Shown: positions 1,299 through 41,170, counted from the stretch's first letter. The stretch: 64,000 nucleotides of DNA from Nitrospirota bacterium (GCA_016212165.1 JACRGY010000106.1:851-64850); one strand, 5' to 3'. Notes: a model not told the origin generated them from the sequence alone. Numbers and translations are program-made.

Positions 1299-3194
1299 AT
1301 GAAAAATATTTCTGTTCCCAAAAAATTGCTGTTATCCTTTTTGTCTGTTGCGTGTATATTGGCTGTTTCCGGCGTAGCGTATAGCGGTAATATAATAATT
1401 AAGCCGGGCAAATTTGACCATTTTGCCGTACAGATTCCTGAAAAGAGCAGGGCAGGCGAAGGGGTTATGGTGAGGTTGCAGGCCTATGACGTGCATGACA
1501 ACCTTATTACAGATTTCGGAGAGGCCGGCAAGGATTTTAAGGTTTCAGTTTCCGGCTCTGCCCAGGCCCAGCCTTCAACGTTAAAATCCGCCTCCTTCAC
1601 GGGAGGGACCGCAGGCATAAACATAACAGACAAGAAGGCAGAGTCCGTAACCCTGTCTATTTCCGAATTCGGGAGCACAGTGCCTGTTGTGACCAGGGAG
1701 ATAGTAATCTCTCCGAATAAGCTTGACCATTTTCTTGTCCAGTCACCGCAGTCCGCAGTGGCGGGAAATAATTTTGACGTGAAGGTTATTGCAAGAGACG
1801 CATTTGATAACCCTGTGGCCGATACCGAGATAGATGGCAGAAACATAAAGATAACATCATCAGGCGGAACGAATTTTAAGGTTATAAACACACCGGCTGT
1901 CTTTAAAAACGGTGCAAGCATAGCTACCCTGATGGGAGAAAAAGTAGGCGAGGCCGCTGTTGAGGTTCATGACACAGTAACAGGCAGCAAAGGGGCTAGC
2001 CCAGGCATAAAGGTCATGCCAGCAATACTCAGCCATTTTAAGGTATATGCCCCGAAGGAAACTGTTGCAGGACAACAATTTGAGGTGACCATAGGTGCGT
2101 TTGATGCATTTGATAATACGATAGACAATTATGCCTCGTACGGCAGCGGTGTAAATATTTCCTCCACAGGACAGGCAAAGCTCCTCCCATCTTTCGCAGG
2201 GCCGTCAGAATTCAGAAACGGACAGGCCATTGTAAATCTGAGATATGAGAAGGCAGAGGAAATAAGCATAGTAGCGACTGAGAATAATAAAAGCCAGCAG
2301 GGCAAAAGCCCTTCAATGAAAGTAAACCCATCTGCTCCTGATAATTTTACGGTAGCGACACCTGATACCGCGGTTGCAGGGCAGAGGTTCAAGATTAAAA
2401 TAGAGGCTTATGACAAATTTAATAATATAGTCAGGAATTATAATCTTGCAGGCAATGATGTTTATCTGAATGTTACAGGGACCGGCGTATTATCGCCCAA
2501 AGTAGTCCCTGCGTCAGAATTTGTTGGTGGCATTGCAACCCTTGACGTTGTATATGACAGGGCAGAGTCTTTTGCAATCTCTGCTTCGATGGCAACAAAG
2601 AGAGAAGAAAAAATTACAGTAAAAGAACAGAAGGCAGAACCAGTTGCTCCGGCAGCAAAAGCAGCTGAAAAGCCATCCGTGCCCAAGGCAGTTGAAAGGT
2701 CAACGGCTGAGAAACATGAAGAAAAGCCTGTCCGCAAGGCAGCAGAAAAACCCGTGAAGCCTGAAAAGCAGGCGCCGGCAAAAGAGGAAAAGGCTGTTGC
2801 AAAAAAAGCAGAGATAAAAGAAGCTGTCAAAGAACCTGTAAAGGAAAAGAAGGCTAAAGAGAAATTTTTTGAGATTAAAAAGGTCTCAATAATAGAGGCA
2901 AAGAACAAGGCGATGGTGATAATAAACATGAAGTCACCGAATGGCCCCCTTGATTATAAAGGTGAAATAGATTCTCAAAAAGGCAAAGATTGGATAAAGG
3001 TCAGCCTGAAACCGGCGGTAAACAAGGCAAAGAAGCTGTGGAAGTTCAAGTCGGCGTTTGTTAAAGAGGTTCTCATAGAAGACGACGCAAAAGCAGATGG
3101 GCTGATTATAAGGGTTGAAACATTATCAAAGCAGGTTACGTTTGATGTGAACAAGGTCAAAGACTCGCTTGTCATAAGCATTACGAACCCATAA
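1299..3194 (+). CDS. secreted repeat protein: signal peptide, 4 Ig-like repeats, K/P/E/A-rich linker, C-terminal AMIN-like domain
   Basis: 631 aa. N-terminal signal sequence. Four ~100-aa repeats (K[FL]DHF.VQ.P....AG..F.V.I.A.DAFDN). Low-complexity KPEKQAPAKEEK linker. The last ~100 aa have the alternating beta pattern of AMIN domains. Confidence 0.85.
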   Translation: MKNISVPKKLLLSFLSVACILAVSGVAYSGNIIIKPGKFDHFAVQIPEKSRAGEGVMVRLQAYDVHDNLITDFGEAGKDFKVSVSGSAQAQPSTLKSASFTGGTAGINITDKKAESVTLSISEFGSTVPVVTREIVISPNKLDHFLVQSPQSAVAGNNFDVKVIARDAFDNPVADTEIDGRNIKITSSGGTNFKVINTPAVFKNGASIATLMGEKVGEAAVEVHDTVTGSKGASPGIKVMPAILSHFKVYAPKETVAGQQFEVTIGAFDAFDNTIDNYASYGSGVNISSTGQAKLLPSFAGPSEFRNGQAIVNLRYEKAEEISIVATENNKSQQGKSPSMKVNPSAPDNFTVATPDTAVAGQRFKIKIEAYDKFNNIVRNYNLAGNDVYLNVTGTGVLSPKVVPASEFVGGIATLDVVYDRAESFAISASMATKREEKITVKEQKAEPVAPAAKAAEKPSVPKAVERSTAEKHEEKPVRKAAEKPVKPEKQAPAKEEKAVAKKAEIKEAVKEPVKEKKAKEKFFEIKKVSIIEAKNKAMVIINMKSPNGPLDYKGEIDSQKGKDWIKVSLKPAVNKAKKLWKFKSAFVKEVLIEDDAKADGLIIRVETLSKQVTFDVNKVKDSLVISITNP

Positions 3195-3213: not shown

Positions 3214-3960
3214 TTGCGTATACCATTTATTGCAGCTCACTGGAAGATGAACAAGACCATCCCTGAAACAAGGGGGTTTTTGAAGGCGCTGATCCCTTCT
3301 GTAAAGGATGCAGTTGGAGTGGATATTGTAATAGCCCCGCCATTCACCTCTCTTTTATCTGCTGCGGAGGAAGCGAAAGGCACAAACGTAAAGATTGCAT
3401 CTCAGGATGTTTTCTATGAAGAAAAGGGCGCCTTTACGGGAGAAATATCGCCAGGCATGATTTTGGATTGCGGTTGTTTGCATGTTATTGTAGGGCATTC
3501 GGAGCGAAGGCAGTATTTCAATGAGACCGACGGGATAATAAACAAGAAGATCAAAGCTTCGAAGAAGAACGGGCTTGGCGTGATTTTTTGCATAGGCGAA
3601 TCTTTGGAGCAAAGAGAATCCGGAAAGACCTTTGATATACTGAGCAGGGAGATGGAAAACGGGCTTAAAGATATTGATGGAGATAACATTGTTGTAGCAT
3701 ACGAGCCCATATGGGCAATAGGTACGGGCAGGACAGCTGCTCCTGAACAGGCCCAGGAGGTCCATGCCTATATCAGAAAGAAAATCAGGGTTTTATATGG
3801 AAATAAGGCTGATGAAATCCGTATAATATATGGAGGGAGTGTAACTCCGGAGAATATAGGCTCTCTCATGGCTTGCGGGGATATAGATGGAGCGCTTGTC
3901 GGTGGAGCAAGCCTTAAGGCCGAGAGTTTTGTTGGGATAGTGAAATTTAAGACGGTATAG
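3214..3960 (+). CDS. tpiA: triosephosphate isomerase (TTG start)
   Basis: AAHWKMNK, VIVGHSERR, AYEPIWAIGTG and GGASL motifs. Classical tpiA-secG synteny. Confidence 0.93.
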   Translation: MRIPFIAAHWKMNKTIPETRGFLKALIPSVKDAVGVDIVIAPPFTSLLSAAEEAKGTNVKIASQDVFYEEKGAFTGEISPGMILDCGCLHVIVGHSERRQYFNETDGIINKKIKASKKNGLGVIFCIGESLEQRESGKTFDILSREMENGLKDIDGDNIVVAYEPIWAIGTGRTAAPEQAQEVHAYIRKKIRVLYGNKADEIRIIYGGSVTPENIGSLMACGDIDGALVGGASLKAESFVGIVKFKTV

Positions 3961-4521: not shown

Positions 4522-6054
4522 ATGGGCCGCAATTATGACAAGACGCTTGAGATCAGCGCGCTTTATGAGATAAGCAAGCTGCTTGGTTCATCCCTTAATC
4601 TTAAATCGAATCTGCGCGGGGTAATGAGGGTATTGTCAGAATACCTTGATATGAAGAGGGGGACAGTAGCTCTCAGAACAGACAATGAAGTCTCCATTAT
4701 TGCTGCGCATGGAATGTCAGAGGAAGAGATAAAAAGGGGAAGATACAAGCTCGGCGAAGGCATTATCGGCAGGGTTGCAAAGCTCGGCTCTCCTATTGTA
4801 ATCCCGAATATCGGAGAGGAACCGCTGTTCCTGAACAAGACGGGCGCGCGAACAACGATAAAAAAGGAGAATATCGCCTTTCTCTGCGTACCCATAAAAT
4901 TCAAGAATGAGACGCTCGGCGTTTTAAGCGTTGACAGGCTTTTCGGCTCAAAGACCATATCATTTGAAGAAGACCTGAGGATGCTCAAGATTATAGCCTC
5001 ATTAATAGCCCAATCCGCCAAGCTGCATCAGGAAGTCGAGAAAGAGCGGGAGGCGTTTATCGAGGAGAAGGAGAATCTCAAGCGCCAGCTTAAAGGCAGA
5101 TACAGCGTAGAAAACATGATAGGGCAGTCAGACAGCATGCAGGAGGTCTTTGAGGCTGTTCACAGAGTTGCACCGTCAAAGGCAAACGTGCTTTTGCGGG
5201 GCGAAAGCGGCACAGGAAAGGAACTTATTGCAAAGGCAATCCATTATATGAGCCCGGTATCAAAAGGGCCTTTCATCAAGTTCAACTGCGCATCCATTCC
5301 CGAAGGGCTTTTGGAGTCAGAACTGTTCGGGCATGAAAAAGGCTCTTTTACAGGCGCGATGGCTGCCAGAAAAGGAAGGTTTGAGCTTGCAGACAAAGGG
5401 ACTATTTTCCTTGATGAGATAGGAGATCTGCCTTTATCACTGCAACCCAAGATACTGAGGGTCTTGCAGGAAAAAGAGTTCGAAAGGGTAGGCGGTGAAA
5501 AGACCATAAAGGTTGATGTCAGGCTCATTGCTGCAACGAGCAGAAACCTTGAGGACCTTGTTTCAAAAGGGAAGTTCAGGGAAGACCTTTATTATCGCCT
5601 TAATGTCGTCCCTGTATTTCTTCCTTCGTTGAGGGAGAAAAAAGAGGATATTGCGCAGCTTGCGGAATATTTCCTTAAGAAATACAACAAGGAAAATAAT
5701 AAATCCGTTACGATTAAGCCTGATGTGCTTGATGTTTTCATGGACTATGAATGGCAGGGAAATGTGAGAGAGCTTGAAAACACAATCGAAAGGCTTGTTG
5801 TTATGTCAGCGGGCAAAGTCATAACAAAGGCTGATTTGCCTCTGAATATCAAAGACCAGTCAATCAAATCGAAGTATGGCATTCAGGCAAAAGATGCCCT
5901 TACTTCGACTATTGAAGACATTGAAAAGGCAAGGATTCTTGATGCCCTTACGAACACAAACTGGAACCAGGCAAAGGCGGCAAAGGCGCTGGGCATTACC
6001 CCAAGGCAGATAGGGTATAAGATGAAGAAGTATAAGATACAGCAAACGGCGTAA
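4522..6054 (+). CDS. nifA: sigma54-dependent transcriptional activator, GAF-AAA+-HTH (NifA-like)
   Basis: 510 aa. N-terminal GAF. GESGTGKE Walker A, GSFTGA sigma54-contact loop, C-terminal Fis-type HTH (AAKALGITPRQIGYKMKKY). TGT-N10-ACA sites occur upstream of nifH and nifB in this window. Confidence 0.75.
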   Translation: MGRNYDKTLEISALYEISKLLGSSLNLKSNLRGVMRVLSEYLDMKRGTVALRTDNEVSIIAAHGMSEEEIKRGRYKLGEGIIGRVAKLGSPIVIPNIGEEPLFLNKTGARTTIKKENIAFLCVPIKFKNETLGVLSVDRLFGSKTISFEEDLRMLKIIASLIAQSAKLHQEVEKEREAFIEEKENLKRQLKGRYSVENMIGQSDSMQEVFEAVHRVAPSKANVLLRGESGTGKELIAKAIHYMSPVSKGPFIKFNCASIPEGLLESELFGHEKGSFTGAMAARKGRFELADKGTIFLDEIGDLPLSLQPKILRVLQEKEFERVGGEKTIKVDVRLIAATSRNLEDLVSKGKFREDLYYRLNVVPVFLPSLREKKEDIAQLAEYFLKKYNKENNKSVTIKPDVLDVFMDYEWQGNVRELENTIERLVVMSAGKVITKADLPLNIKDQSIKSKYGIQAKDALTSTIEDIEKARILDALTNTNWNQAKAAKALGITPRQIGYKMKKYKIQQTA

Positions 6055-6149
6055 GAAAAATTTCTATTCAAGCAGGAGAATCTTTTAATTATTGAACAAG
6101 CGGACCCTGCTTCCCTCGAAATCTCTCATTGAAATAAATTTCCCAAGTA

Positions 6150-6225
6150 AAATAACGTTAAAATAATGAGTAAAGTCGTAAGGATATAAAACACCACCAT
6201 CCAGACATTTTTCCTGTGGTTAGGT
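6150..6225 (-). other. candidate degenerate attC site (76 nt) ending cassette 2
   Basis: The minus strand starts with R'' ACCTAAC (contains the TAA stop of the 6220-6783 ORF) and ends with GTTATTT. Inner pairing is only weak and A/T-rich. The R'' block GAACCTAAC is the exact reverse complement of the cassette 5' boundary GTTAGGTTC at 6796-6804. Confidence 0.4.
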
Positions 6226-6783
6226 TCTGATTTGCCATAAAATAAAATCCAATTTCTTTATATTAGTTATTGATTGAGCTTCTTCAATGAGATCGTTAAA
6301 CACTCCTATCATCATCGGTCCCTGAGTATTTTCAATGTTTTTATATCGTGTTATAAGTTCCTCATATAATGCCTCTATTTTGGCTACTTTATTTTTTGCC
6401 TTATGATAAGGCGGACGTAAGCAAAGATTTTCTAAAACATGCTTATCCCAAATTGGCATGTTTGGATTATGGGTAGCAACAAGTTTACTTGAGAATGACG
6501 GCTCATCTCTGTTAAGTTTGTCCTTGATATATTTTAACGTAGCAGAAAATGTAACATCTTTGCCCTTTTGACGCTCCATATAATTATAGTATGTCTTATA
6601 CCATTCCTCTGGCTTTTGCCTTACTCTATAAAATCCATTAAACATCGTTTGAAATACTCTATCCTCAGCAACGTTAGTTTGATTAAATAGCTCCATAATT
6701 TCTCTGTACTTTTTGATGCCGTGTTTTGCCTTTTCGGAAGATATAGCTTTTCTCACTTGATCTTCTGTATAGATAGTTGGCAT
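6220..6783 (-). CDS. hypothetical protein (integron-type cassette 2)
   Basis: 187 aa. GGGAGG RBS. No family recognised. Bounded by attC-type boundaries. Confidence 0.75.
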   Translation of the reverse strand: MPTIYTEDQVRKAISSEKAKHGIKKYREIMELFNQTNVAEDRVFQTMFNGFYRVRQKPEEWYKTYYNYMERQKGKDVTFSATLKYIKDKLNRDEPSFSSKLVATHNPNMPIWDKHVLENLCLRPPYHKAKNKVAKIEALYEELITRYKNIENTQGPMMIGVFNDLIEEAQSITNIKKLDFILWQIRT

Positions 6784-6797
6784 CTGGCCTCCCTTGA

Positions 6798-6857
6798 ACC
6801 TAACGTTCGCGTGACGCGCCGCCTTCTGGCGCGTCGCTGTCGACGCGATTGTTAGTC
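6798..6857 (-). other. integron attC recombination site (60 nt)
   Basis: Minus strand: GACTAAC-AATCGCGTCGACAGCGACGCGCC-AGAAGGC-GGCGCGTCACGCGAAC-GTTAGGT. This gives R'' (RYYYAAC-like) and R' (GTTRRRY, perfect), an imperfect palindrome with an unpaired CGACAGC bulge, and a start 1 nt after the upstream stop codon. Confidence 0.8.
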
Positions 6858-6858
6858 T

Positions 6859-7518
6859 TTACTTGGCTTTGCTTGTTTCTTCAATAATTTTCAGAACTTC
6901 TTTCTCTATTGCTGCAGCCAACCGTCTATTGGCCTGCTTCTCATTAAGCAGTTCCCAATACTCTCCAATGATTAAGCGATGATAGTTTTTGGTTGTTAAA
7001 TGCGGATAGAAGTTATTGGCGAGGCCCCACGCGAGACTGCTAATGACGACTTGCTGTTCTTTGGGCTTGTATTTAGATAAGATGGCGAGAAGATACGGCG
7101 CTCTCAACGTGTATAGTTTACCCAGGCCAAATGATCTTAATTCATCTGCAGAACCCTGTGTCTCGATAATGAAATCTATATATCGCTTCGTCAGCGAATC
7201 CAACGACATCAGGCTAATGATTTCTGCTATTTGAACGTAGTCGATATCGAATTGGCCAAGCGTTGATAGTTTATCCGAGTCCCGTGACGTTGCTGGGAGG
7301 AGAGTTGTTATAAGTTTTTGTGAAAAATCGCTATCGATTTGCTGATGACGCCCTAAAAAGAACCAAATAGAATGGATGCATTTCTTTACGGGTTCTGGTG
7401 TAGGTGCTTGAAGTAATGTCGCCTTAGGCTCACAGACATCTTGACTCCAAGCATTAGCCCCATGCCCGAGATATAGAAGAACAGCGAACAGCATGAATAT
7501 CATTCTCTTGATCATCAT
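6859..7518 (-). CDS. secreted hypothetical protein (integron-type cassette 1)
   Basis: The track ORF extends to 7647, but the signal peptide MMIKRMIFMLFAVLLYLGHGANAWSQ starts at 7518/7515, just after AGAGGA and the cassette boundary GTTAGTC (7527-7533, minus strand). Confidence 0.75.
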   Translation of the reverse strand: MMIKRMIFMLFAVLLYLGHGANAWSQDVCEPKATLLQAPTPEPVKKCIHSIWFFLGRHQQIDSDFSQKLITTLLPATSRDSDKLSTLGQFDIDYVQIAEIISLMSLDSLTKRYIDFIIETQGSADELRSFGLGKLYTLRAPYLLAILSKYKPKEQQVVISSLAWGLANNFYPHLTTKNYHRLIIGEYWELLNEKQANRRLAAAIEKEVLKIIEETSKAK

Positions 7519-7733
7519 TATCCTCTGACTAACAATTACTATACCCTGCGGGTATTTTTCGCATTCATAGGAGAATAATATCATATTTGGTAATTCTTGA
7601 ACAGAAAAAAATCCCATAAAAACAAAAAGAATTAAATCATCACTCATGGCATCTCATGATAATAAGGATAAAAAGTAAGGCAGGTAAAATATAGGAAAAT
7701 TGTCCGACAATACAAAAATGATTTTCAGTGACC

Positions 7734-7771
7734 CTATGTTCTGAAGTCCGGAAGCGCCTTGAGCGCATTTC
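7734..7771. repeat. 38-nt direct repeat, copy A (flanks the brnTA module)
   Basis: CTATGTTCTGAAGTCCGGAAGCGCCTTGAGCGCATTTC. It matches copy B (8327-8364) at 28 of 38 positions with an identical TCCGGAAGCGCC core. Confidence 0.7.
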
Positions 7772-7783
7772 TTTCTTTTGGCC

Positions 7784-8026
7784 TCAAGATGCCTTTTCAA
7801 GACGTTCTGCTACCCACACTTTTATGATAGATTGACGAGGCACACCTAAACGTTTTGCTTCTCTGTCCAATAAATGGATCATCCATAAAGGGAAATCTAC
7901 ATTAACCCTTTTTTGTTCCCGTTCCGGTCTTCTCGCCTTTGAGGTATCGAGATATTTGGAAATATCCTCGCCTTCATCAAACTTCTTTTCAATTTCTTTA
8001 GCCTTAAGTGCCTTCATATATTTCAA
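7784..8026 (-). CDS. brnA: type II antitoxin, BrnA family (RHH/CopG-like)
   Basis: 80 aa. C-terminal VNVDFPLWMIHLLDREAKRLGVPRQSIIKVWVAERL ribbon-helix-helix. Overlaps the brnT 3' end. Confidence 0.8.
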   Translation of the reverse strand: MKYMKALKAKEIEKKFDEGEDISKYLDTSKARRPEREQKRVNVDFPLWMIHLLDREAKRLGVPRQSIIKVWVAERLEKAS

Positions 8027-8267
8027 CCTCCTCTTTTCTCGAGCGACGTACCGAAATGATTCTTATTTTATCACTCCTATACGTTATAATCCCCGACCAA
8101 TGCCTCTCTGAAATCTTTCCTATTACCAAGAATCTTGGTTCATCACTTGTTCTTAAGAGAATCTCAATTAAATCAGAGTCATCCCATATTGCCTGAGCTT
8201 CATAGAAGTCAATCCCATGCTTTGCCTTGTTGCTGTCACTTTTCTGAGAATCGAATTCAAACTCCAT
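8004..8267 (-). CDS. brnT: type II toxin, BrnT family (DUF497 ribonuclease)
   Basis: 87 aa. FEFD..K...N..KHGI.F.EA..I motif and RIISVRRSRKEE, typical of BrnT. Confidence 0.8.
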   Translation of the reverse strand: MEFEFDSQKSDSNKAKHGIDFYEAQAIWDDSDLIEILLRTSDEPRFLVIGKISERHWSGIITYRSDKIRIISVRRSRKEEVEIYEGT

Positions 8268-8276
8268 GATATAATA

Positions 8277-8304
8277 ATTATACCTTAATTATACCTATTG
8301 TCAA
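8277..8304 (-). promoter_or_regulatory. candidate sigma70 promoter of brnTA (TTGACA-16-TATAAT)
   Basis: Minus strand: TTGACA (8304-8299), 16-nt spacer, TATAAT (8282-8277). The brnT ATG lies 9 nt downstream. Confidence 0.45.
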
Positions 8305-8326
8305 CCAATTATTCCTTAGCAAGGGG

Positions 8327-8364
8327 CTATGTCCGAAAATCCGGAAGCGCCCTAAGCGAATCCA
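8327..8364. repeat. 38-nt direct repeat, copy B
   Basis: CTATGTCCGAAAATCCGGAAGCGCCCTAAGCGAATCCA. It sits inside a ~60-nt imperfect palindrome, AGGGG...CCCCT. Confidence 0.7.
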
Positions 8365-8465
8365 ATATGACAACCCCTGACCATTTCCTACAAATTTGTG
8401 CTAATCGAACAAAAATGTATCATAAATTTACTTGCAATTATCATATAAATCAAGCAGTTAGCGTC

Positions 8466-8481
8466 TGGCATGGTTCTGGCA
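8466..8481 (+). promoter_or_regulatory. sigma54 (-24/-12) promoter
   Basis: TGGCATGGTTCTGGCA. The GG and GC dinucleotides are spaced exactly as in TGGCAC-N5-TTGCW. Two yTACAAAwwTGT palindromes lie 50-75 nt upstream (8388-8400, 8408-8420). Confidence 0.65.
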
Positions 8482-8508
8482 ATTAAATTACGCGAGGTGA
8501 TGGAAACA

Positions 8509-8712
8509 ATGGGCTCGCTGAAAGAAAAAATAGGTCTAATGGAGAGGGATGAGATAATCGCCGCCCTTAAAGAAAGCAACTGGATTATGGCAAGGGCAGC
8601 GAGAAAGCTCGGAATTACGGAACGTATGATCGGTTACAAGATTAAAAAATACGGGATAAAGGAGGTGCGGTGGATTAAAGGGGCAGCACAAGAGGAACAA
8701 ACGGCAGGTTGA
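8509..8712 (+). CDS. stand-alone Fis-type HTH protein (equivalent to the C-terminal DNA-binding domain of an enhancer-binding protein)
   Basis: The track ORF starts at 8470 inside the -24/-12 promoter. The ATG at 8509 follows GAGGTG by 9 nt. ERDEIIAALKESNWIMARAARKLGITERMIGYKIKKYGI is an HTH_8 pattern. Confidence 0.7.
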   Translation: MGSLKEKIGLMERDEIIAALKESNWIMARAARKLGITERMIGYKIKKYGIKEVRWIKGAAQEEQTAG

Positions 8713-8767
8713 TAGGTTTTTAGCGGTCAATTTTATTGACCGATTTAGAAAAGGGAGGAACATTAAA

Positions 8768-39841: not shown

Positions 39842-41170
39842 ATGCAAATACTTATTATTGAAGATGACTCTGCCATACAGCTTGCCCTCAGGGTTTTTTT
39901 TGAGAAAAAAAACTATGAGGTCCTGCTTGCTGATACAGGGGCTAAAGGGTTGGATATCGCCGGGAAGAACCTGCCGGATATAGTCCTCCTCGACCTTCGA
40001 TTGCCTGATATTTATGGCCTGGAACTTCTAAAAAAAATTAAATCTGACCGTCCTGACTCAATGGTTTATATAATGACTGCCTTTGGTGAGGTTAAGGATG
40101 TAATAGACGCTATAAACCTCGGCGCAGAAAATTACTTCCAGAAACCTGTGGACCTCGAAGAATTGGGAGCAATAATTGACAGGAGCTCTGAAAAAATAAA
40201 ATTAAGACAAGAGTTAATGTTATGCAAAAGAGGGCTGTATCCCATTATAGGAAGAAGTAAGGCTGTGCAGGGACTCATTCATCTAATTAATCTTATGGCT
40301 GAAAACCATTCCACTACATTGCTGATACAGGGTGAAACAGGGACAGGCAAAGAACTTGTTGCAAGGAACATCCATTCATTAAGCATGAGGGGAGAAAATC
40401 CGTTTGTAGATATAAACTGTGCCTCTATCCCGGATAATATCCTTGAAAGTGAGATTTTTGGATATGAGGCCGGGGCTTTTACGGATGCAAGGTCGGCAAA
40501 AAAAGGACTTCTTGAGATTGCTGATAAGGGCACCCTGTTTCTTGATGAAATTGCAGAAATGCCCCTTGCCACTCAGGCAAAGTTTTTAAGAGTAATAGAG
40601 ACAAAAACATTCAGGCGGTTGGGTGGCACAAAGGACATAAAAGTTGACATGCGTATTATTGCTGCAACGAATAAAGATCTTGCAAATGCTGTGCATAACA
40701 ATTATTTTCGGGAAGACCTTTATTACAGGCTAAATGTTATGCCTATTACAATCCCTCCCTTAAGGGAACGCATTGAAGATATCCCCTTGCTGGCAGAGTT
40801 CTTCATAACAGAGATTGCAGAAAATATGGCCAAGAAAATAAAGCCGCTTGACAGAGAAGCTGTGGAAGCTCTCTGTTCTTATAGATGGCCGGGCAACATA
40901 AGAGAGTTGCGAAACGTGCTGGAGAGGGCCATGATTCTTTGCCGTGGGGAAGTACTGACAGTCCAGAACCTGGTATTGTCTGCTGGCTCAACCGAAGAAA
41001 ACGCTGCCGCACTTACTCTTAAAGATGTTGAGCGCCTGCATATCAAGGCAATCCTTTCATTGGCTGCCAATAACCGTACAAAGGCTGCAAATATGCTCGG
41101 AATTGCACGTTCAACTCTTAACGAAAAAATTAAAAGTTACAATATTCCCAAGTCCGATCCTGAAATTTGA
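39842..41170 (+). CDS. sigma54-dependent response regulator (REC-AAA+-HTH, NtrC/AtoC family)
   Basis: IIEDD...LLDLRLPD receiver, GETGTGKE, GYEAGAFTDA, C-terminal AANMLGIARSTLNEKIKSY HTH. An alternative TTG start lies at 39833. Confidence 0.9.
   Translation: MQILIIEDDSAIQLALRVFFEKKNYEVLLADTGAKGLDIAGKNLPDIVLLDLRLPDIYGLELLKKIKSDRPDSMVYIMTAFGEVKDVIDAINLGAENYFQKPVDLEELGAIIDRSSEKIKLRQELMLCKRGLYPIIGRSKAVQGLIHLINLMAENHSTTLLIQGETGTGKELVARNIHSLSMRGENPFVDINCASIPDNILESEIFGYEAGAFTDARSAKKGLLEIADKGTLFLDEIAEMPLATQAKFLRVIETKTFRRLGGTKDIKVDMRIIAATNKDLANAVHNNYFREDLYYRLNVMPITIPPLRERIEDIPLLAEFFITEIAENMAKKIKPLDREAVEALCSYRWPGNIRELRNVLERAMILCRGEVLTVQNLVLSAGSTEENAAALTLKDVERLHIKAILSLAANNRTKAANMLGIARSTLNEKIKSYNIPKSDPEI

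Follow-up and report, generated by a model that had tools for sequence, protein, structure and literature searches.

A probable integron gene cassette cluster without an integrase beside nifA in a Nitrospirota bacterium

Introduction

Two kinds of described element lie closest to the locus considered here. Clusters of attC sites lacking an integrase (CALINs) are reported by IntegronFinder 2 only from two attC sites upwards (PMC9024848), and single attC sites lacking an integrase have been named SALINs (bioRxiv 10.1101/2022.09.11.507474). In the latter work Loot et al. describe efficient insertion of cassettes at genomic 5'-GWT-3' sites and find single-attC elements to be common. The locus lies in a 64,000-nt stretch of a Nitrospirota genome (GCA_016212165.1, JACRGY010000106.1:851-64850; the whole stretch is referred to as the window). 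Approximately positions 6055-8385, from nifA to the sigma-54-type promoter of the next operon, are very probably clustered integron gene cassettes that have been stranded with no integrase. This region, subsequently referred to as the island, contains two cassettes, each with one open reading frame (ORF1 and ORF2), and a brnTA toxin–antitoxin module (Table 1).

The island shares features with both kinds of element. As in a SALIN, one attC site is joined to a coding sequence, there is no integrase nearby, and the left junction is a non-att sequence with the G|TT crossover (the bar marks the crossover point). It differs from a SALIN in that the attC site is followed by a second ORF of a cassette family, with a cassette start and R'' box of its own, and is preceded by a toxin–antitoxin module that also belongs to a cassette family. 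The resemblance to a CALIN lies in the co-oriented and apparently promoter-less small ORFs, the toxin–antitoxin module with its own promoter and the lack of intI. However, a CALIN needs at least two attC sites, whereas the window has one, the others being lost or reduced to an R'' box. An initial annotation of this DNA had proposed CALIN-like cassettes without an integrase next to a nifA-like gene. The cassettes are real, no integron integrase (IntI) is encoded in the window and the neighbouring gene is nifA, but the CALIN label does not hold, as only a single attC match is present where two or more clustered sites are needed. Because one attC falls below the two-attC threshold, the element would be reported formally, by IntegronFinder rules, as a single-attC SALIN.

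A tblastn search of the window with IntI1 gave a best match of E=3.9, in agreement with the absence of intI that had been claimed for the 64 kb, and there is no recombinase among the ORFs beside the island. With no intI in 64 kb, the locus is not a complete integron, which would comprise intI, attI and the cassette promoter Pc. An attI site is not recognizable without its integrase.

Results and discussion

The attC site at the end of cassette 1

The stop codon of ORF1 (TAA, 6861-6859) is followed by a single A and then by the R'' box GACTAAC (6857-6851), which opens a 60-nt site ending in the R' box GTTAGGT (6804-6798). The R'' box fits the consensus RYYYAAC at 6 of 7 positions and the R' box fits GTTRRRY at all 7. 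The two boxes form six pairs, of which five are Watson–Crick and one is a G1·T60 wobble, with A2 and G59 mismatched. Between them lie imperfect inner repeats consisting of two arm pairs, TCGCGT/ACGCGA and GACGCGCC/GGCGCGTC, with the extra bases on the R''/L'' arm, as is usual for attC sites. The 60-mer folds at −19.9 and −19.7 kcal/mol for the two strands, with z scores of −4.8 and −5.6, and none of 200 shuffled sequences folds as well. In the minimum-energy fold of the bottom strand the '' arm carries a 7-nt bulge, and an alternative of nearly equal energy has single bulged bases instead, including C16 at the canonical extrahelical position. The boxes, arm pairs and unpaired bulge described in the initial annotation are thus all in place one nucleotide past the ORF1 stop codon, and folding bears out the hairpin.

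Compared with the attC sites of class 1 integron cassettes (aadA1/aadB type), the site has the same length of 60 nt, an R'' box of the form xxCTAAC followed by AAT, an R' box of the form GTTAGxx, a GC-rich apical stem and an extrahelical C at top-strand position 16. It differs in three respects: most of the spacer beside the R box is base-paired (TCG/CGA), the canonical spacing does not hold for the second extrahelical base, and the lowest-energy structure contains one 7-nt bulge, with four single bulges as the alternative.

The window was searched with covariance models built here from real attC sites, not with the curated model of IntegronFinder. Class 1 integrons were located in plasmids by tblastn with IntI1 and 13 loci were fetched for attC extraction, the sources including aadA1, aadA2, aadA16, aadB, aacA4, VIM-2, cmlA1, dfrA27 and aac(6')-29a. 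Model R1 comprises 11 sites and 16 base pairs over the R and L boxes. Model R2 comprises 22 sites, namely those of the R1 type together with independently found environmental attC sites, the window site and its near-identical copy (see below) being excluded. With filters off, R1 places 6798-6857 on the minus strand first in the window at 12.7 bits; this model is narrow, since held-out real attC sites reach only 19.5–22.7 bits with it and two were missed altogether. R1 aligns with the site over its whole length and in the canonical register: the R box has 7 positions, the spacer 5 nt, and C16 is bulged in the L box, corresponding to an extrahelical G on the bottom strand. A single deletion falls in the 3' spacer, a feature shared with the arr-3/estX/dfrA14 class.

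With R2 the site scores 19.2 bits (E=0.014 over the 64 kb and both strands), again at full length, in the canonical register and only in the orientation of the ORFs, and E falls to 0.00055 when the search is restricted to the island. The match to R2 is significant, in line with the attC site proposed in the initial annotation. Nothing else in the window lies below E=0.9. In control searches with filters off, which covered about 200 kb in all and never exceeded about 13 bits, the best R2 score elsewhere in the window was 12.7 bits, for a match inside a coding region, and that in 87.5 kb of unrelated genomes was 12.1 bits; 48 kb of loci without arrays yielded no match up to the listing limit of E=2, equivalent to roughly 12 bits. 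No Rfam family matched in the window, and a scan of Joint Genome Institute (JGI) metagenomes for this attC, using a pattern with exact ends, gave 0 matches. On sequence grounds 6798-6857 is confirmed as an authentic integron attC site.

The second-best attC-model match in the window, at 40693-40742 (12.7 bits), which also ranks second with R1, has the form GCATAAC...GTTATGC, a perfect 7-bp inverted repeat across 50 nt. As its position is within a sigma-54 activator gene and only its ends align to the model, it was rejected as a chance match.

Cassette 1 as a discrete mobile unit

ORF1 has nine homologues, none with a Pfam domain. One of these (P0122, 89% identical) is encoded on L097, a 3,967-nt contig of NCBI assembly GCA_036704645.1 that carries five co-oriented small ORFs separated by attC matches. 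With R2 these matches lie at 1219-1279 (26.2 bits), 2295-2351 (51.3 bits), 3019-3078 (20.9 bits) and 3790-3848 (46.5 bits); R2 was trained on the second and the fourth among others, which makes their R2 scores non-independent, and with R1 they score 27.1 and 18.6 bits, respectively. The site at 3019-3078 is the window attC with two changes (58–59 of 60 nt identical).

In a pairwise alignment, window positions 7533 (GTTAGTC) to 6800 (GTTAG) are 90.7% identical between the two loci, and outside cassette 1 the identity is 45–52%, which is alignment noise, on either side. The similarity therefore begins at G|TTAGTC (7533) and ends at the G|TT of the R' box (6804). Upstream of the cassette L097 has another attC site whereas the window has AT-rich DNA, and downstream of G|TT a different gene in L097 takes the place of ORF2 in the window. 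Between the two loci the attC site (about 98%) is more conserved than ORF1 (89.8%). Because homology to L097 breaks at both G|TT points, with unrelated flanks, ORF1 and the hairpin together form an integron cassette, and these sequence comparisons show cassette 1 to be a separate mobile unit that extends from one G|TT crossover point to the other.

The first bases of cassette 1, GTTAGTC (7533-7527), are the reverse complement of its own R'' box. The same complementarity is seen in ORF1-family members at L108, L109 and L111, which start with GTTAGAC and have GTCTAAC as R'' box; these cassettes are preceded by non-attC, AT-rich DNA. The unit is found in different contexts, as the family members at L098, L108 and L109 have other neighbours than the window copy. 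The homologue at L098 (53% identical to ORF1) is flanked by attC sites of 45.3 and 26.2 bits, and no integrase was found in the 16 kb fetched for this locus.

As a separate observation on L098, the ORF1 homologue with its attC pair occupies 7558-8722 of a 76.6-kb metagenomic contig, between housekeeping genes, namely a block of apaG and a metallophosphatase gene on one side and folA-thyA on the other. The L098 locus is a chromosomal CALIN carrying the ORF1 cargo family.

By inspection, the N-terminus of ORF1 looks like a signal peptide. The AlphaFold2 (AF2) model of the protein is helical, with a predicted local distance difference test score (pLDDT) of 71, and Foldseek gave no match in PDB or BFVD. 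Searches of ORF1 and ORF2 against Pfam, NCBIfam, PADLOC, PHROGs and PDB sequences returned nothing, in keeping with the statement in the initial annotation that neither has an assigned function.

Cassette 2 and the loss of its attC site

The start of cassette 2, GTTAGGTTC (6804-6796), is an exact 9-nt reverse complement of its end, GAACCTAAC, which has the TAA stop codon of ORF2 inside it. The initial annotation had stated that the rule of complementary ends holds twice. At the level of sequence it does, in cassettes 1 and 2 alike, but only one attC is present and there is no second. The region 3' of the ORF2 stop codon has no fold (z +0.5 and +0.25) and no attC-model match, and the best R2 match in the island besides the attC site of cassette 1 (attC1) is 5.4 bits.

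The ORF2 family has 144 homologues across many phyla and no Pfam, NCBIfam or PADLOC match. No attC was found in the three chromosomal contexts of homologues L001–L003. A homologue with 49% identity to ORF2 (P0009) occurs as an identical protein on six contigs, where its varied neighbours include toxin–antitoxin modules, methyltransferases, GmrSD and a restriction enzyme. The P0009 cassette has GTTATGC at its start and the R'' box GCATAAC over the stop codon at its end, an arrangement found in L102–L105, and in L104 these two ends show the same complementarity as in the window cassettes. The attC sites ahead of it differ (22.9 bits in L104, 26.8 in L102 and 21.5 in L105), and a strong attC lies 3' of it in L104 (41.5 bits) and L103 (40.8 bits). 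The P0009-like design of cassette 2 at both ends, together with the finding of nothing attC-like after its R'' box, leads to the conclusion that, judged by homology and boundary logic, cassette 2 is real and its attC was lost after R''.

Among the identical P0009 cassettes the shared R'' box GCATAAC is followed by differing hairpin bodies. Those of L103, L104 and L106 are canonical attC sites, and those of L102 (4543-4620) and L105 (1439-1520) are GGATT...AATCC hairpins that end in GTTCAAGAAGCC and have no attC-model match. The divergence starts exactly past R'', the same point at which the ORF2 attC stops in the window (GAACCTAAC|CACAGG). Instead of marking random decay, these breakpoints might reflect integrase-mediated exchange at the R'' box, which in complement has the sequence of a GTTRRRY core; attC bodies would be replaced or removed in this way and cassettes left stranded, a mechanism that the observations would fit but that is considered improbable. 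The D1 repeats found in place of both brnTA attC sites (see below) might be a product of such an exchange or a second, hitherto undescribed type of site.

The AF2 model of ORF2 is all-alpha with a pLDDT of 96.9. It has no PDB or BFVD match at E<1, the only matches being faint ones to HhH-GPD glycosylases (probability at most 0.13). From this model ORF2 is a candidate new fold, in a family often located beside toxin–antitoxin and restriction–modification genes.

The brnTA module and the D1 repeats

BrnT matches PF04365 (BrnT_toxin; 4.3e-24, 85 bits, cutoff 34.5) and BrnA matches NF047399 of NCBIfam (1.5e-36, 124 bits, cutoff 60), so that adjacent toxin and antitoxin genes make up a BrnT/BrnA system. 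These matches and the promoter, identical to the sigma-70 consensus, agree with the upstream brnTA module with its own promoter that had been annotated initially. A metagenome scan yielded 80 brnTA loci with 72–84% amino acid identity in BrnT and 82–85% DNA identity. With R2, 14 of the loci have an attC site immediately 3' of brnA and at least 7 have one immediately ahead of the promoter, and the homologous cassettes start with G|TTAGxx approximately 20 nt ahead of the −35 box. The homology of the window module spans the promoter to the brnA stop codon only.

Toxin–antitoxin cassettes are described as stabilizing chromosomal integrons by post-segregational killing. The window module resembles such cassettes of sedentary chromosomal integrons in having an internal consensus promoter and in having close relatives that are bounded by G|TTAGxx and then by an attC site. 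It differs from them in that it has no attC, and 35-nt direct repeats (D1a and D1b) occupy those positions. The two copies are 80% identical, and the differences between them look synonymous-type in one plus-strand frame, although the sites involved are too few for this to be interpreted. The window contains no further copy of D1, and the 191 fetched loci contain none. The possibility that the repeats are attC sites was ruled out, as they have no attC-model match and no significant fold.

Origin of the cluster

The loci compared above show each of the three modules to be a member of a family that is mobile in cassette form in other genomes, and the reading that fits the cluster best is a piece of a cassette array that has decayed. 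It would have been produced by IntI activity, either as a transferred piece of an array that then eroded or by successive insertions at a genomic G|TT site. Of the sites, attC1 alone may still be recombinable today, and only with IntI supplied from elsewhere in the genome; if IntI were present, excision of cassette 1 would be possible. On inspection ORF1 and ORF2 have no convincing promoters of their own, and their expression probably depends on transcripts that start at the brnTA promoter and read through; this promoter would then act as Pc does in an integron. By analogy with other toxin–antitoxin cassettes, brnTA probably stabilizes the segment by post-segregational killing.

Several observations weigh against a cassette cluster. 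Only one attC is detectable, cassette 2 and the brnTA cassette being recognized by homology and boundary sequence alone, and brnTA has no attC on either side. The R1 score of the site taken alone is weak (E=1.1). The D1 repeats that flank brnTA have no explanation within a cassette origin. A weak terminator-like hairpin, ATACCCGCAGGGTAT, lies at 7541-7555 inside the spacer between brnA and cassette 1, which bears on the proposed read-through. Finally, a relative with an empty site was sought via NifA in the GTDB genomes and none was found, and the outer borders of the island are therefore approximate.

Three other explanations were considered. It is possible, though doubtful, that the cluster is not what is left of an integron or array that was once complete, but arose by the SALIN (attG) route, in which an IntI working in trans would have integrated free circular cassettes into a G|WT site of this intergenic region, perhaps several times at one hybrid junction. 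The left junction of cassette 1, where non-attC DNA ends in G and is followed by TTAGTC, is what such an insertion would leave, and the ORF1-family cassettes that follow AT-rich, non-attC DNA at L108, L109 and L111 are of the same kind. There is neither an intI nor an intI pseudogene nearby, and both the efficiency of insertion at 5'-GWT-3' and the frequency of single-attC elements are documented by Loot et al. (bioRxiv 10.1101/2022.09.11.507474). However, a run of three modules from cassette families, all in one orientation, is more suggestive of an array fragment. Entry of cassette 2 by the attG route should moreover have left an intact attC at its right junction, where it is missing, and its start at G|TTAGGTTC fits its own R'' box over 9 nt, as expected of past recombination between two attC sites or between attC and attI, and not of a random target.

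It is distinctly unlikely that the island belongs to a mobile element of another type, for instance a small integrative island or a transposon carrying cassettes by chance, with D1 as its attachment or duplication sites. The two D1 copies do flank brnTA as direct repeats and are placed exactly where the conserved brnTA unit ends. Yet no recombinase or transposase lies in or beside the island, and the repeats, besides having no significant structure and no further copy in the window or the 191 loci, flank brnTA alone and not the cassettes. The notion that the hairpin is an ordinary terminator or a repetitive extragenic palindromic (REP)-like palindrome, with its R'' and R' boxes matching by chance, draws on the position of the hairpin between two co-oriented ORFs, on a pattern scan that calls its sub-stems terminator-like on the plus strand and on the weak R1 result. 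It was rejected as extremely improbable, being contradicted by the full-length R2 match in one orientation and by the near-identical copy in the L097 cassette array, where homology breaks at G|TT on both sides and the site (98%) is better conserved than the ORF (90%); in addition, the hairpin lacks a following T-run on the ORF strand, and no other hairpin of this kind occurs in the window.

Read as a cassette cluster, the island points to integron cassette traffic into a Nitrospirota (Thermodesulfovibrionia-like) nitrogen fixer, immediately beside a nif regulator, and provides a clean case of a cassette common (90% identity) to an unrelated environmental array. Comparison of boundaries can in this way validate single-attC elements that default pipelines discard. 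Two cassette protein families are also flagged, one of which, that of ORF2, has a confidently modelled fold without a significant PDB or BFVD match. The type of element is already known, and the picture of integrons is unchanged.

Genomic surroundings of the island

The island has a GC content of 38.5% compared with 43–45% in its flanks. This low-GC stretch measures 2.3 kb and occupies a gap with nifA on one side and the nitrogenase operon on the other. In window coordinates the order on the minus strand is ORF2, the GC-rich 60-nt hairpin, ORF1, the AT-rich spacer, brnA and brnT, so that all three modules are co-oriented. Beyond the island the plus strand carries a small HTH_8 gene, a porin-like gene, amtB, glnB, nifH and nifD.

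Table 1. Positions of the features of the island and of nifA (window coordinates; a dot stands for no assigned strand).
Feature	Position	Strand	Remarks
nifA	4522-6054	+	TIGR01817, 585.7 bits (cutoff 528.85)
Stretch from R'' remnant to nifA stop, 164 nt	6055-6218	.	No homologue, structure or attC match
Cassette 2, truncated: TTAGGTTC...ORF2...R''-only remnant GAACCTAAC (6227-6219)	6219-6803	-	9-nt inverted repeat
ORF2, 187 aa	6220-6783	-	Widespread all-alpha family, ~182 aa; locus tag HZA11_07545 (100% identical)
attC of cassette 1, 60 nt	6798-6857	-	Crossover G6804|T6803
Cassette 1: TTAGTC...ORF1...attC...G, 729 nt	6804-7532	-	Bounded by two G|TT points
ORF1, 219 aa	6859-7518	-	N-terminal hydrophobic signal-like segment, then ANA|WSQ, conserved Cys
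Spacer, brnA to cassette 1 start, 250 nt	7534-7783	-	AT-rich (34% GC); junction ...GTAATTG|TTAGTC
D1a, 35-nt direct repeat copy	7734-7768	.	15 nt past brnA stop, where attC expected
brnT (8004-8267) and brnA (7784-8017), overlapping	7784-8267	-	Type II toxin–antitoxin
brnTA promoter	8277-8304	-	Consensus sigma-70, TTGACA-16-TATAAT, 12/12 matches; kept in brnTA cassettes of other loci
D1b, second 35-nt copy	8327-8361	.	Just upstream of brnTA promoter, where preceding attC would end

The spacer has no homologue in any fetched locus and no attC-model match. The 164-nt stretch next to nifA likewise has no homologue in the fetched loci, no structure and no attC match. Just past the nifA stop codon an imperfect inverted repeat is formed by 6055-6076 and 6106-6127, which are 73% complementary with 29 nt between the arms; this repeat could be a shared terminator for the convergent transcripts of nifA and the island.

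Synteny on the nifA side was surveyed in eight Nitrospirota relatives from GTDB genomes, with NifA identities of 62–82%. The downstream arrangement is kept in one of the eight (L020), a metagenome-assembled genome of the Dissulfurispiraceae. In L020 the interval between nifA and the gene for the small helix–turn–helix (HTH) protein holds a parA-like gene instead of the island, and the interval is variable because a different gene fills the gap. Similarity to L020 resumes at approximately position 8390 of the window, which is the right edge of the island.

The small gene at 8466-8712 has a probable start at 8509 and would encode approximately 67 residues consisting only of a Fis-type HTH, which resembles the C-terminal DNA-binding domain of NifA. 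The suggestion that the 80-aa HTH ORF is a displaced 3' end of nifA was ruled out, as it is a separate gene in L020 also. A −24/−12-like motif, TGGCATG-N4-TGGCA, precedes it at 8466-8481. Both the gene (70% amino acid identity) and the motif are conserved in L020, ahead of the porin gene and amtB, and the small protein could be a competitor or a partner of NifA at NifA binding sites.

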